DNA from: Clostridia bacterium
GTDB lineage: Bacteria; Bacillota; Clostridia; TANB77; CAG-508
Direction of reading: 5' to 3'
Assembly (NCBI GenBank): GCA_022790575.1
Contig: JAAVXM010000034.1
Coordinates: forward strand, 9,467 to 73,466
Length of the DNA: 64,000 nucleotides
The position numbers and the translations under genes are program-made. Of this stretch, positions 30,648 to 41,352 are shown piece by piece. The first letter of the stretch is position 1; each line of letters opens with the position of its first letter. The notes beneath the pieces were generated by a model. The model saw only the letters and a program-made list of their open reading frames with translations, was not told the DNA's origin and searched no databases.

Positions 30648-31913
30648 ATGGCAGGGAATCCAATGCAAAGAAAATCAAGAAATTCATTTTTATTAGGAAT
30701 AATAGTAGCACTACTAATTTCAAGTATTGCAATAGTAATATTATTTCTTCAAATAAATAAGAAAGACCAAGAAATAAAAAATATGAAAGCAAGTACAAAG
30801 AAAGTATATGTTTTAAATGAAGATGTTGAATCAGGTCAAATATTAACACAAGATATGTTTTCAATAAAAGAAGTGAATTCAGACAGTATACCTAGTGATG
30901 CAACAGCAATGACAGAAGTAATTGAATCATGGTTTTTACAAACATCAGAAGGAGATATGGTACAAAGAGATAGTAAAGGGTTATTTATAGATTCAAAAGG
31001 AGATTCTATAATAGAACTATTTGAAGTGACAGCAGAAGATGTAAAAGATGCCGAAGGATTAGAAGTAGGTCAATATTATAGAATAGAAAATGGAGAGAAA
31101 ATAGCTACCTCAGTAAGAGGAACACCATACAATGACAATGATGGTTACTTTGTTGTGGATTCAAATAATGAAGATACAAAAACAAGAATATATCCTGAAG
31201 TAACAGGAGGATATTATTGCTATAGACTAGATACTTCAACAAATACAAGAGTTAAAACAGAAATAAATATGAGCAATGTTGGAATGATGGCAAAAGTAGG
31301 AATGAAAAAAAATACAGTTATGACTAGAAATTTAGTTCAACAAACAGATAATCCAATAACAAGTGATGTAAGAAAAGAAGAATACAATATGATGATATTA
31401 CCAACAGACTTAATGACAGATGATTACATAGATATTAGATTAAGAATGCCAAATGGACAAAACTTCATAGTAGTTTCAAAGAAACAAGTAACAATACCAA
31501 CTACTGAAGATGGTTCATACATAGCAGATACAATATGGGTGAATTTAAATGAAGCTGAAATATTAATGTTATCAAGTGCGATAGTAGAAGCATATGGAGT
31601 GCCAGGAGGACAAATATATGTAAATAAATATGTAGAAGCTGGAATGCAAGATGCAGCAACACCAACATATTATCCAAATAATGGAGTAATAGCTCAAATA
31701 AATTCAAATCCAAATATTGTTGAAAGAGCAAAAGCTGGATTAAGAAGAAGCTTAACAGAAGAAGCAAGAAATGTAAGACAAAATTATTTACAATCACAAA
31801 TAGATGCTAGTACAACATATGATGTAGATGTATCTGCTGGAATGGATGAATCAGCAGACAAATCAGAAACATCAAGAAAAAGATATCTTGACAGTTTAGG
31901 CAGTGCAGAATAA
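30648..31913 (+). CDS. CpaB/RcpC-like pilus assembly protein (N-terminal TM + SAF-like domain) with a large insertion
   Basis: TM FLLGIIVALLISSIAIVILFL, a SAF-like segment KKVYVLNEDVESGQILTQDMFSIKEVNSDSIPSDA, and a C-terminal DDYIDIRLRMPNGQNFIVVS...IWVNLNEAEILMLSSAIVEAYG that resembles the CpaB C-domain. Confidence 0.55.
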   Translation: MAGNPMQRKSRNSFLLGIIVALLISSIAIVILFLQINKKDQEIKNMKASTKKVYVLNEDVESGQILTQDMFSIKEVNSDSIPSDATAMTEVIESWFLQTSEGDMVQRDSKGLFIDSKGDSIIELFEVTAEDVKDAEGLEVGQYYRIENGEKIATSVRGTPYNDNDGYFVVDSNNEDTKTRIYPEVTGGYYCYRLDTSTNTRVKTEINMSNVGMMAKVGMKKNTVMTRNLVQQTDNPITSDVRKEEYNMMILPTDLMTDDYIDIRLRMPNGQNFIVVSKKQVTIPTTEDGSYIADTIWVNLNEAEILMLSSAIVEAYGVPGGQIYVNKYVEAGMQDAATPTYYPNNGVIAQINSNPNIVERAKAGLRRSLTEEARNVRQNYLQSQIDASTTYDVDVSAGMDESADKSETSRKRYLDSLGSAE

Positions 31914-31949
31914 TAAAAGATAATGCATTAAAAAGGAGACAAACTAAAT

Positions 31950-32633
31950 ATGAAAAAAATTGGTTTTATAGGAGCATATGATAAAACAGACTTGCTATTA
32001 TATATAGCAAAAATATTAACTAGAAAAGGAATAAGAGTTATAGTAGCAGATGCTACTATAACTCAAAAAAGCAGATATTCAGTACCAACAATAACACCAT
32101 CAGAGAGTTATATAACTGAATTTGAAGGAGTAGATGTTGCAGTAGGATTTAACTCAATAGAAAAACTAAAGCAATACAAAGGTGTAGAAGATGAAAGCAG
32201 AATGAATTATGATTATATGCTAGTTGATACAGATAGTTATGCAGGAGTTGTAAATTACAATATCCAAACAGCAGAAAAAATATATTTTGTTAGTTCATTT
32301 GATGCATATTCATTAAAAAGAGGTATAGAAATACTAAAGAAAATTGAAGCACCATTAAATATGACAAAAATATTCTATTCAAGGAGATTAGCAAAAGAAG
32401 ATGAATATTTTGATTATTTAGCATTAGGTGCTAAAGTTACATGGAATGAAGAAAGACTATACTTTCCATTAGAAAATGGTGACCAATCAGTAATAATGGA
32501 GAATGAAAGATTAGAAAAAATAAAATTAAAAGGTCTAAGTAGTGAATATAAAGAAAATCTTATTTATTTAGTAACAGACATAGAAAGTGGATTAGACAAA
32601 AAGCAAATAAGATTTTTGATAAAAACTTTATAA
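31950..32633 (+). CDS. ParA/MinD-fold protein with degenerate P-loop (TadZ/CpaE-position)
   Basis: KKIGFIGAYDKTDLLLYIAKILTRKGIRVIVADA aligns to the kIav.s.KGGvGKTt.a..la..la..gkkVll.DaD pattern, but the GGxGK glycines are replaced (AYDKT). Confidence 0.45.
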   Translation: MKKIGFIGAYDKTDLLLYIAKILTRKGIRVIVADATITQKSRYSVPTITPSESYITEFEGVDVAVGFNSIEKLKQYKGVEDESRMNYDYMLVDTDSYAGVVNYNIQTAEKIYFVSSFDAYSLKRGIEILKKIEAPLNMTKIFYSRRLAKEDEYFDYLALGAKVTWNEERLYFPLENGDQSVIMENERLEKIKLKGLSSEYKENLIYLVTDIESGLDKKQIRFLIKTL

Positions 32634-32645
32634 AGGAGTAAAGAT

Positions 32646-33515
32646 ATGTCAATTATAGCATTTTGGAATGATGATAAAGAACAAACAGGAAAAACATTAA
32701 CAGCAGTTGCAGTTGCAACTAAAATGGCAGTAGAACGTAATATGAAAATATTATTAATAACAACAAGTTATAGAGATGCAACTTTAAAAAATTGTTTTTG
32801 GTCAGATGCAATCCAAAATAATTTTAACATTTTAGGAAAACAAAGAAATAATATTGCACTTGAAAATGGTATAGATGGTTTATCAAAGCTACTAACAAGT
32901 AACAAACTAGAGCCATCAATGATTACAGACTATACAAAAGTAGTATTCAAAAATAGACTTGAGATATTATCAGGATATCTAACAATAGATGAAAGATTGT
33001 CAGAAAAAGAAAATTTTGAGAACTATAAGAGAGTGTCAGAATGTTATCCAGACCTTTTAAGAATTGCAAACCAATATTATGATATGGTAGTCGTTGATGT
33101 TGATAATGCATTAAGTAATGAAGTAAAACAGGAGATTTTAAGAATATCAAATCTAAAAATGGTTGTATTATCACAAAGAATGTCAAGTTTAAATAAATAT
33201 AATGAGATGAAAGAGCAAAACAAAGAAATAATTGGACCAGCAGTTATACCTGTTATAGGAAGATATGATAGAAATTCAAAATACAATCAAAAAAATATAG
33301 TTAGATATTTAAAAGAAAAGAAAAATGTAGGAATAGTACCATATTCAACACTATTTTTTGAAGCAGCAGAAGAAGCAAATGTTGCAGAATTTTTTATGAA
33401 AATGGGAGAAATAAGAGACACAAATGATGGTACATATTATTTTATGGCAGAAATGTTAAATCTTATAGATATGATTACAAACAGATTACAAGAATTGCAA
33501 ATGAGAATGAGGTGA
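32646..33515 (+). CDS. ParA/MinD-family ATPase-like protein (TadZ/CpaE-position)
   Basis: IIAFWNDDKEQTGKTLTAVAVATKMAVERNMKILLITT retains a deviant Walker A K-x3-GKT. A Walker B-like MVVVDVD is present. Confidence 0.5.
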   Translation: MSIIAFWNDDKEQTGKTLTAVAVATKMAVERNMKILLITTSYRDATLKNCFWSDAIQNNFNILGKQRNNIALENGIDGLSKLLTSNKLEPSMITDYTKVVFKNRLEILSGYLTIDERLSEKENFENYKRVSECYPDLLRIANQYYDMVVVDVDNALSNEVKQEILRISNLKMVVLSQRMSSLNKYNEMKEQNKEIIGPAVIPVIGRYDRNSKYNQKNIVRYLKEKKNVGIVPYSTLFFEAAEEANVAEFFMKMGEIRDTNDGTYYFMAEMLNLIDMITNRLQELQMRMR

Positions 33516-33519
33516 GAAA

Positions 33520-40080: not shown

Positions 40081-40111
40081 TCTAAAATAAATAATAGGAA
40101 GGAGATATACT

Positions 40112-40699
40112 ATGGAAAATGTTACAGAAGCATTGAAAATGGCATTTGGAGTAATGATGTTTGTAATAGCATTAACACTAGGTATATCTTCTTTTTCTAT
40201 GGCAAGAGATGCAGTAGACTCAATAATAACAATGAAAGACAAAAAGCAAGAATATACATATATAAGGTCAACAGATGATACAAAAATAGTAGGTGTAGAA
40301 ACAATAATACCAACAATGTATAAAGCATATAAAGAAAACTTTAGTATAGAGTTTTATAAGGAAGATGGAAGCCCATTGTATTTATATACATATACACATC
40401 CCAATAATGCAGGAAAAACTGATGTATATTATATAGACCTAAAAAAAGAATTATTACCAGATGCAACAGAAGCCATAGAACATTTAGATATATTGTTAGA
40501 TAAAAAAAGTAATGCTTCCAAATATAAAGAACAATTTAGAAGTGAATATACAAATGGTTTATATGAATTTTTCAAAAACAATACTTTTAAAGAGGAACTA
40601 GGAGAATATTATCAAGAAGACGCTTTAGCAGGAACAAAAACAGAAACATTAGATGTAAACAAAACTAAAAAAAGACTTATAACATATACATTACAATAA
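40112..40699 (+). CDS. Divergent pilin-like/minor subunit (MENVTEALKMAFG N-terminus)
   Basis: N-terminus MENVTEALKMAFGVMMFVIALTLGISSF. The remainder is unrelated to paralogs 1-4. RBS is GGAAGGAG. Confidence 0.5.
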   Translation: MENVTEALKMAFGVMMFVIALTLGISSFSMARDAVDSIITMKDKKQEYTYIRSTDDTKIVGVETIIPTMYKAYKENFSIEFYKEDGSPLYLYTYTHPNNAGKTDVYYIDLKKELLPDATEAIEHLDILLDKKSNASKYKEQFRSEYTNGLYEFFKNNTFKEELGEYYQEDALAGTKTETLDVNKTKKRLITYTLQ

Positions 40700-40746
40700 A
40701 ATTTACTGAGAAAGGAGTAGTTAGCAATTAGCTAACAAGATATAAA

Positions 40747-41316
40747 ATGGAAGATACATCAATATCAATAATAGGAATTTTGTTAGCATCAGTATTAATG
40801 TTTATAGTACCATTAATCATGATTGCTGACAGAAATGATGATATATCACAACTAACAGTACAAACAGTAACAGCAGAGTTTGTTGACCAAGTAATAAGAA
40901 CTGGAAAGATTACAGCTGAGACGTATCAACAATATATTAATTCACTAGAAGCTTCTGGAAACACATATGATATTGACATAGAAATAAAGATGTTGGACAA
41001 AAACACAGCACAAAGATTTACTTCAGAAAATAATAATGGTGCAATTGGTCCAAATTCATATTATTCAATATTTACAAGTCAAATTGAAGATAGGTTAATA
41101 AGTGCAAGAGATTCTAAGCTTGACTCACATGGTAATCCTATTGGAGTAGGACAAATTATACTAAAAGAAGGTGACATAATCTCCATAACAACTAGAAATA
41201 GTAGTATGACAATGTCACAAACTTTAAAAAATATTTATTATAAAATAAAAGGTGAAGACCTTCATATAATTGCAGCAACAGGTTCTGGAACAATCGCTGT
41301 AAATGGAGCTTCATAA
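40747..41316 (+). CDS. N-terminal-helix protein, candidate minor subunit/assembly factor
   Basis: MEDTSISIIGILLASVLMFIVPLIMIAD followed by a soluble domain. It is the last gene before the operon terminator. Confidence 0.45.
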   Translation: MEDTSISIIGILLASVLMFIVPLIMIADRNDDISQLTVQTVTAEFVDQVIRTGKITAETYQQYINSLEASGNTYDIDIEIKMLDKNTAQRFTSENNNGAIGPNSYYSIFTSQIEDRLISARDSKLDSHGNPIGVGQIILKEGDIISITTRNSSMTMSQTLKNIYYKIKGEDLHIIAATGSGTIAVNGAS

Positions 41317-41319
41317 AAA

Positions 41320-41352
41320 ATGATTATAAGGTTTATTATAGTCATTTTTTTG
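41320..41352 (+). terminator. Rho-independent terminator of the filament operon
   Basis: ATGATTATAA (41320-41329) / TTATAGTCAT (41336-41345, one mismatch), followed by TTTTTTT. Confidence 0.55.

Follow-up and report, generated by a model that had tools for sequence, protein, structure and literature searches.

A Tad-derived operon of gut Clostridia and large Firmicute plasmids, and the possibility of a filament assembled without a prepilin peptidase

Three parts define type IV filaments: an ATPase, a platform, and pilins that an A24 peptidase cleaves. The question raised by the locus described here is whether a machine of this descent may have dispensed with the last of these, the cleavage step. 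The locus lies in a 64,000-nucleotide stretch of DNA from a Clostridia bacterium (assembly GCA_022790575.1, contig JAAVXM010000034.1, positions 9,467 to 73,466), called the window throughout, in which coordinates are counted from its first letter. It consists of eleven open reading frames (ORFs), g1 to g11, all on the + strand between 30648 and 41316, with intergenic spacings of 4-75 nt and a GGAGG-type ribosome-binding site ahead of each of the eleven ATG starts. A first-pass annotation, made from the letters alone, had taken the operon for a divergent and possibly uncharacterised branch of the type IV filament superfamily, and that description has held up: its proteins fall below the Pfam and NCBIfam thresholds, and no description of the module was found in the literature on clostridial Tad systems, on pilins that lack a leader or need no peptidase, on DUF5704, or on Paenibacillus and pBsph pili. 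Profile comparisons identify the core of the machine, with high confidence, as a Tad derivative. The further reading, that the operon encodes a Tad-derived, type-IV-filament-like envelope machine whose subunits (g6, g7, g9 and g10, which begin with a MENA motif) form an extracellular fibre or short piston independently of A24 processing, stands for us at an even balance of belief and doubt. More tentative still is the generalisation that the module represents a widespread, previously unrecognised filament lineage in which leaderless subunits are polymerised by an anchored ATPase and a fused platform without an A24 step.

The ATPase is encoded by g4 (33520..35505, +; 661 aa). The motifs GEQGCGKTT, ITETAFEL, IIGEV and FTHHAKT, from which it had been assigned to the CpaF/TadA family of secretion ATPases, are all present, and the assignment is borne out by the PDB structures of CpaF (8rkd/9e24; E=3e-10 over residues 254-540), its PDB matches including none of the other secretion-ATPase families, and by hhalign comparison with a profile of seven CpaF sequences from annotated tad loci (99.5%, E=2e-23). 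It is the only one of the eleven proteins to be recognised above threshold by any library or annotation, PGAP naming it TadA. The Pfam and NCBIfam scans of all eleven proteins returned nothing above a curated threshold, g4 itself reaching 23.1 bits against Pfam T2SSE, slightly under the cut-off of 24.9, and E=1.5e-8 against TIGR03819, again below the curated cut-off; PHROGs, searched with ten of the proteins, gave nothing meaningful. In front of the ATPase domain lies an N-terminal extension of about 200 aa that opens with a transmembrane (TM) helix (residues 1-28; 33520-33603). This anchor is found in all 45 of the 45 gut orthologues and in three of five plasmid copies (L081, L090 and L091), and in none of the seven canonical CpaF proteins.

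The platform presents a different picture from the one originally drawn, in which a 690-aa polytopic membrane protein sat in the position of TadB and TadC and no pair of TadB/TadC size was seen. The protein, g5 (35544..37613, +), is indeed there, with 689 aa counted from the ATG at 35544, which is the likelier start and that of the NCBI record (the ORF opens at a GTG at 35529), and TadB and TadC appear to be fused within it rather than replaced. Against reference alignments of TadB and TadC from seven annotated tad loci on plasmids, the N half (residues 130-326) gave an hhalign probability of 96.7% with TadB (E=4.5e-10) and the C half 90.2% with TadC (E=1.6e-6), rising to 95.4% with TadB and TadC together; reversed-sequence controls gave 2% or less. 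An independent hhalign run gave 96.8% (E=2.2e-10), and both halves prefer their co-linear Tad partner. Since its halves match TadB and TadC, the platform is canonical in ancestry, and g5 would be either a TadB-TadC fusion or an unsplit precursor, not a foreign protein. General libraries are silent on it: g5 has no Pfam, NCBIfam or PDB match, none of 73 diverse members of the family scanned singly hits Pfam T2SSF, and a profile of the same 73 likewise has no match in the PDB. In architecture the module may be likened to the archaeal type IV pili, with their single-polypeptide, two-domain platform and TadA-like ATPase, and an archaeal Epd-like lineage has been proposed as the source of Tad (PMC6668835). 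The co-linearity of g5 with bacterial TadB and TadC would fit a fusion or an unsplit ancestral state equally.

Upstream of the ATPase stand three genes with counterparts, of unequal clarity, in tad loci. The first, g1 (30648..31913, +; 421 aa), encodes a bitopic membrane protein in which a SAF domain accompanies an N-terminal TM helix (residues 10-39), and is a candidate CpaB/RcpC-like component. It matches TIGR03177 (pilus_cpaB) at E=2.8e-5 over residues 17-88, with 23.5 bits against a curated cut-off of 71. The SAF domain of g1 itself scores E=0.014, and 19 of the 31 members of its family match SAF (best 3.3e-7) and nine match ChapFlgA; the plasmid orthologues are annotated "SAF domain-containing protein". 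The original description of g1 as a membrane-anchored SAF/CpaB-like protein is upheld for the helix and the SAF part; nothing matches the C-terminal 300 aa, the comparison with two CpaB sequences by hhalign reaches 45%, and the family profile has no match in the PDB. The two ParA/MinD-fold proteins described earlier have fared differently from each other. The product of g3 (32646..33515, +; 289 aa) is a P-loop protein of the ParA/MinD type (..EQTGKT..) and may be taken as a TadZ/CpaE-like component, with 81.8% against six TadZ/CpaE sequences by hhalign (E=1.1e-5 over 229 columns, covering the ParA-like domain only; reversed control 0.1%), which is moderate backing. Its remaining matches, to CbiA, MinD and eps_fam, are weak, the Thermobacillus orthologue is annotated ParA, and no receiver-like N-terminal domain was detected in it. 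Backing for g2 (31950..32633, +; 227 aa), a cytoplasmic protein lacking a Walker A motif, is weak throughout: AAA_31 matches it at E=0.016, the family profile touches the MinD structure 4v02 marginally (E=0.033, residues 8-37 only), two of 32 family members match AAA_31 or CbiA, and hhalign against TadZ was not significant. It may at best be a degenerate ParA/MinD fold, possibly a degenerate paralogue of g3.

With the Tad/Flp systems of Caulobacter (Cpa) and Aggregatibacter (Tad) the module has in common a CpaF/TadA ATPase, a TadB/TadC-like platform, a candidate TadZ-like ParA protein, a candidate CpaB-like protein with TM helix and SAF domain, and the gene order cpaB, tadZ, tadA, tadB, tadC with the subunit genes after, which is the order of the canonical tad loci compared. 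It differs from them in having both platform halves in one 689-aa protein, two ParA-like genes and an ATPase that is about 180 aa longer and anchored in the membrane, and in lacking a Flp gene, the N-terminal motif of the TadE type and a TadV peptidase; its subunits are leaderless MENA-type proteins of 140-280 aa; the ATPase apart, every part lies under the Pfam and NCBIfam thresholds. The fused platform, the membrane-anchored ATPase and the leaderless subunit family standing in place of Flp, TadE and TadF are the novel structural traits. The Tad loci of single-membrane bacteria (Thermoanaerobacterium pTHETHE01, Bulleidia extructa, Bifidobacterium) likewise have no secretin and carry CpaB, a ParA-like protein and TadA in one operon, and they too are often plasmid-borne or horizontally acquired (PMC12786226); unlike the module, they have separate, annotated TadB and TadC, a Flp-size gene and minor pilins of the DUF4320 or TadE type. 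The Bulleidia extructa locus was considered as the same system and set aside, being a canonical tad locus with the tadV peptidase heading the operon (PMC12786226). The superfamily survey of Denise et al. 2019 required profile-detectable platform and pilin genes (PMC6668835), and since the platform and subunits here match no existing profile, surveys of the TXSScan type would miss the module.

The six proteins that follow the platform each have a single N-terminal hydrophobic helix, as had been noted from the letters alone, and five of them are related. The shortest of the MENATKAL type is g9 (39649..40080, +; 143 aa), the candidate major subunit. Full-length paralogy with it was found for g7 (38559..39113, +; 184 aa; hhalign 99.8% over 136 columns), which is of the same type, and in g6 (37629..38483, +; 284 aa), also of this type, the paralogy covers the first 81 residues (99.6%) and is followed by a variable C-terminal domain. 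The product of g10 (40112..40699, +; 195 aa), which begins MENA[AV][DE]ALK, has only the N-terminal 47 residues in common with g9 (96.8% over 47 columns). A paralogue of g7 is encoded by g8 (39157..39579, +; 140 aa; 98.3% over 134 columns), in which a positively charged signal anchor of the MKK type takes the place of the MENA motif. The last protein, g11 (40747..41316, +; 189 aa), forms a separate family, with a hydrophobic helix followed by an invariant (A/S)DR(N/T)DD motif; it showed no relation to g6-g10 by hhalign and no match in Pfam, NCBIfam or PHROGs, it is 31% identical to a 184-aa protein of Thermobacillus, and its orthologues occur in the plasmid copies.

It is the N-termini of the four MENA proteins that suggest a filament. 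The start MENA[ST]KAL of g6, g7 and g9 stands at residue 1 of the ORF in 73 of 79 loci for g6, in 74 of 79 for g7 and in 73-74 of about 79 for g9, and the corresponding start of g10 stands there in 65 of 73. With a conserved motif at the first residue there is no room for a leader. Plasmid homologues are likewise leaderless, opening with MSTNASKAL, MDSVTKAI or MGENARKAL, and a test of the MENA subunits for class III signals found neither a Gly at -1 nor a positively charged leader. Archaeal pilins carry class III signal peptides that are cut by A24 peptidases of the PibD or EppA type, whereas the subunits here have no leader. Residues 1-25 of the four proteins are conserved at 0.70-0.85 and the remainder at 0.35-0.47 (0.70 against 0.36 in g6 and 0.82 against 0.35 in g7); in g9, a set of 86 homologues with overall identity of about 55-65% shows hardly any variation at residues 1-24, and the hydrophobic N-terminal helix of the MENA subunits has a conserved face. 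In g8 the TM segment is no better conserved than the remainder. The contrast between N-terminus and ectodomain in the MENA proteins is, as far as alignments can tell, the pattern of pilins, and their N-termini resemble those of mature type IV pilins. Lacking a cleavable leader, the subunits could offer the usual prepilin peptidase nothing to cut, and it is from the mature-pilin-like N-terminus at residue 1 that we propose assembly without A24 cleavage. Profile searches gave the small proteins no match to Flp, TadE, TadF or TadG: Pfam and NCBIfam found no Flp or N_methyl family in the locus proteins, the gaps (at most 75 nt) and the rest of the locus hold no Flp-size ORF, and among 1081 g9 homologues none of the 120 listed has a Pfam domain.

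Neither the locus nor the remainder of the 64-kb window contains an A24-like ORF, and in five plasmid copies of the module no prepilin peptidase is annotated within about 12 kb; the locus proteins also have no G|FTLIE or G|xxxxEY motif, so that the first-pass annotation was right on both absences. The window does contain, at 52594-53955 (+), a 453-aa protein with a canonical class III signal KQQG|ITLIALVVTIIILL (N_methyl E=0.002) and a Big_2 domain, and from this class III pilin-like protein the genome probably has an A24 peptidase elsewhere. Its absence from the window is accordingly no argument for independence, which is argued here from subunits that have nothing to cleave and not from a missing enzyme.

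This probable peptidase is one of several points that weigh against the proposed fibre. The fibre itself is a prediction, made wholly by computation. By hhalign, g6-g11 score 1% or less against nine TadE, TadF and TadG sequences, no better than reversed controls. In the AlphaFold2 model of g9 (pLDDT 83.4) a linker modelled with low confidence joins a helix (residues 2-35) to a small alpha/beta domain, and the parting of helix from domain by such a linker is unlike the alpha-1 helix of pilins. Foldseek of this model against the PDB gave nothing at E <=0.001 and no match to a solved pilin, its best hits being PhzA/B and SnoaL (NTF2-like folds) at the noise level of E about 0.2, and the g9 family profile has no PDB match either. 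The platform assignment of g5 stands on profile comparison alone, as the AlphaFold2 model (pLDDT 54.9, from an alignment limited to close homologues of 78-87% identity) is too poor to be used in a fold search. Finally, the residue at 31/32 just beyond the helix of the MENA proteins could be a site for signal peptidase I, or a hinge.

Two other explanations of the small proteins draw on these same points. In one, which we consider possible and rather doubtful, the motor is Tad-like and the small proteins are bitopic accessory or alignment parts in the manner of PilN/PilO or GspL/GspM, or form a short pseudopilus, the exported or displayed cargo being something else, such as SLH or DUF5704 proteins. 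The g9 model, with its TM helix, flexible linker and separate small domain and its want of a pilin fold match, would suit such parts, as would the missing similarity to TadE, TadF and TadG and the ordinary signal anchor of g8. Foldseek of the g9 model, however, found no PilN-, PilO- or GspM-like match either. The near-invariant N-terminus and helix face of the MENA proteins, unlike the g8 anchor, better fit the packing of helices in a polymer, and a set of four to five paralogues with hypervariable ectodomains resembles the sets of major and minor pilins.

In the other, which seems to us improbable, the small proteins are secreted, a signal peptide being cut by type I signal peptidase near residues 31-32, and the mature domains build an external fibre or matrix as TasA does with SipW. 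All of g6, g7, g9 and g10 have a conserved aromatic residue at 28 and a small residue at 31/32 after the helix (F-G-Q-A-R in g10, where the cut would fall as G-Q-A|R, and S-F-G in g7), and a length of about 31 residues suits Gram-positive signal peptides. Sec signal peptides are positively charged, however, whereas the N-flanks of the four MENA proteins have net charges of 0, 0, 0 and -1.9 (the last being g10), that of g8 being +2. The supposed signal peptide would be the best-conserved region of the protein, an Asn or Gln at -3 in g9 and g6 makes a poor site, and the AlphaFold helix of g9 continues through the putative point of cleavage. A lepB gene lies downstream of the Clostridium botulinum plasmid copy; the locus in the window has no signal peptidase gene, and nor do four further copies on plasmids.

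If the MENA proteins are instead filament subunits, the following mechanism may be proposed for this machine of a Firmicute with a single membrane. Transcription would start at a sigma-A-type promoter under an activator bound to four TATTACA repeats phased at 11 nt. The ATPase g4 would act as a hexamer tethered to the membrane through its own N-terminal helix, and its hydrolysis of ATP would turn or lever the g5 platform, as in Tad pili; the platform would then draw the membrane-embedded subunits out of the membrane, so that they stack as an extracellular fibre or short piston. These subunits would be the MENA paralogues g6, g7, g9 and g10, with g9 the likely major one and g8 and g11 accessory, and they would be assembled without cleavage by an A24 prepilin peptidase. 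A conduit through the wall would be formed by g1, and the position of the machine within the cell would be set by g2 and g3. Its most likely role is in adhesion or aggregation within the gut.

As first described, the operon has one promoter ahead of it and a hairpin with a T-run at its end. A consensus scan places a candidate sigma-A-type promoter, TTGATT-17 nt-TAAAAT (9/12 matches), at 30576..30604 (+), and in 62 of 68 related loci the g1 orthologue has the pattern TTGNNT-N16-18-TANAAT ahead of it. Its -35 element is preceded, 14 nt upstream, by the end of an array of four 11-nt-phased repeats (30522..30561, +); those at 30522, 30533 and 30555 read TATTACA, and the one at 30544, TATTAAG, is degenerate. 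The array is visible in the aligned upstream regions of related genomes and kept across about 60 species, T[AG]TTACA being spaced by 11 nt in 59 cases and by 22 nt in 26 among 68 related upstream regions, and nowhere else in the window do three copies stand so close; it is a putative binding site for a transcription activator. At the other end the hairpin and T-run noticed at first have proved to be an A+T-rich intrinsic terminator (41315..41352, +) with a 15-bp stem (41315-41350) of -12.5 kcal/mol, a z-score of -5.24 against shuffles and none of 200 shuffles as good; it had been overlooked by a scan based on G+C. An Rfam scan found no riboswitch or other RNA element within or ahead of the operon.

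The promoter and repeats point to a sigma-A promoter under a repeat-binding activator and not to a sporulation sigma factor, and so bear on the hint, given with the first description, that the machine is tied to sporulation, whether by making spore-surface fibres or by working in the mother cell or the forespore. The hint came from the flanks, said to be a gene for a small acid-soluble protein (SASP) and spoIVB. These do flank the locus, an alpha/beta-type SASP gene at 29301-29510 (-) and spoIVB at 41471-42721, with a HAD hydrolase gene (29639-30520) intervening between the former and g1. The same flanks are kept in most of 80 related genomes, and nearly all carriers of the module belong to spore-forming lineages. 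Besides the sigma-A-like promoter with its activator-type array, where nothing conserved of the sigma-E, F, G or K type was noted, the plasmid copies have varied, unrelated neighbours and the non-sporulating Butyrivibrio carries the module; the SASP/spoIVB synteny belongs to one clade, and the taxonomic bias may simply mirror phylogeny. An NCBIfam scan of all eleven proteins at E <=1 found no SpoIIIA family, and no other sporulation family was matched. We regard a role in sporulation as very improbable.

The branch had been placed in a sporulating Firmicute, and it is by no means limited to one. The g5 family comprises 1108 clusters at 50% identity, nearly all full length, and a survey using one genome per species and a query alignment of five sequences found the module in at least 580 species-level genomes, with many further copies on megaplasmids. 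Synteny and identity were compared in the best 80 of these carriers, all of them uncultured gut Clostridia (from human, mouse, chicken, rabbit, sheep and deer). The eleven genes are present in order across these 80 loci, usually with the HAD/SASP genes on one side and spoIVB on the other. Over about 80 species, identity to the window is 75-93% for g4, 61-87% for g5 and 26-60% for the small proteins; that the latter evolve far faster than the motor is consistent with their exposure at the surface. Cultured Paenibacillus and Saccharibacillus have more distant members, in every case annotated "hypothetical protein". In IMG/VR there are only three weakly relevant contigs, and from this near-absence the module is not a viral feature.

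Full-length homologues of g4 are carried on 33 plasmid records, including those of Thermobacillus, Cohnella, Paenibacillus, Sporosarcina, Cytobacillus, Alkalihalophilus pseudofirmus OF4, Lysinibacillus sphaericus (pBsph), Butyrivibrio proteoclasticus, Clostridium argentinense and C. botulinum. The five loci inspected encode a SAF protein, two ParA-like or hypothetical proteins, the ATPase and a protein of about 680 aa, and, after these, small proteins. Downstream of the module, the plasmids of three Bacilli encode an SLH protein and a DUF5704 protein of 1000-1200 aa (Thermobacillus L081, 18006-23797; Lysinibacillus L090, 15566-19939; Alkalihalophilus L092, 18331-23955), and in two of the three, Thermobacillus and Alkalihalophilus, a diguanylate cyclase gene comes next; NCBIfam gave nothing meaningful on the plasmid neighbours, and DUF5704 is named in none of the papers searched. 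An SLH and DUF5704 pair in this position could be the cargo if the small proteins were accessory parts, but the loci of the gut clade have neither SLH nor DUF5704 as a neighbour. On C. botulinum pFI1111E1 (L082) a cell-wall hydrolase gene lies among the small genes, with genes for a GGDEF protein and lepB downstream (15282-16040, 21421-22461, 23015-23503). Plasmids of C. botulinum and C. sporogenes (240-270 kb) carry a second, more canonical-looking Tad set (L085, pRSJ20_1, 8695-12314), with an ATPase 25% identical to g4, separate genes of TadB and TadC size and a 57-aa ORF of Flp size.

So many plasmid copies raise the question of whether the module serves conjugation. IncI plasmids such as R64 encode a thin pilus of type IVb, by which mating in liquid is stabilised, and this pilus offers a functional analogy, a filament module standing beside a separate type IV secretion system (T4SS) on a large plasmid of the conjugative type, as on pBsph and pTHECO01; it differs from the module in its ATPase lineage (PilQ/PilB-type), its canonical prepilins and its own PilU peptidase. 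By analogy, the module would form the mating-aggregate or mating-pair pilus of large Firmicute plasmids, the chromosomal copy being domesticated or residual. On Thermobacillus pTHECO01 it lies about 5 kb downstream of genes for a T4SS coupling protein and of the relaxase type, and the best NCBIfam match of g4 is a "conjugal transfer-associated" TadA family. The pBsph-like plasmids are conjugative, with separate homologues of VirB4, VirB6 and VirD4, and an earlier paper lists a "pilus assembly ATPase" among their possible transfer genes (PMC4363355, PMC13239906). Against this, most of the plasmid records are typed as non-mobilizable and the module is hardly present in IMG/VR. The VirB4, VirD4 and relaxase families are unmatched in the eleven proteins, barring weak secondary VirB11/TrbB matches to the P-loop of g4, and the locus of the gut clade, near which relaxase, T4SS and integrase genes are absent, occupies one and the same site amid housekeeping genes across about 80 species, with unremarkable G+C (equal to that of its surroundings in the window, which is about 27% throughout). 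A mating pilus is, in our estimate, quite unlikely. The pXO16 conjugation system of Bacillus thuringiensis was considered and dropped, a review giving no link and no B. thuringiensis appearing among the plasmid records listed.

The window itself is chromosomal, as seen from its tmRNA gene (10082-10436, -), its tRNA genes and its capsule/exopolysaccharide (EPS) cluster. The two tRNA genes (44428-44498 and 44545-44615, both +) are 46 nt apart and have equal Rfam scores. The capsule/EPS cluster (16008-29153, 24734-25880) includes a sugar transferase, Wzy-like and flippase-like proteins, Wzz, a tyrosine-kinase-type ParA protein and a CpsB phosphatase, and has embedded in it a sortase gene and a gene for a small signal-peptide protein. 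A few kb from the tmRNA gene, at 1514-2996 (+), are ORFs with a serine-recombinase-like N-terminus (..DDGISGTTFDRPG..), which may be part of an integrated element.

Should the small proteins of this module polymerise as proposed, the peptidase step would be dispensable, what is taken for a defining rule of the superfamily would be broken, and the MENA proteins would be a new class of subunit. The linkage of the plasmid copies in Bacilli to diguanylate cyclase, SLH and DUF5704 genes suggests a surface organelle controlled by c-di-GMP on megaplasmids, among them the toxin-size plasmids of C. botulinum and C. argentinense. The plasmid carriers that can be cultured, such as Lysinibacillus sphaericus, Alkalihalophilus pseudofirmus OF4, Paenibacillus polymyxa and Butyrivibrio proteoclasticus, open the question to experiment. 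In the gut lineage, a surface fibre or adhesin of this kind, if it exists, would bear on colonisation by abundant uncultured Clostridia of humans, mice, poultry, rabbits and ruminants.

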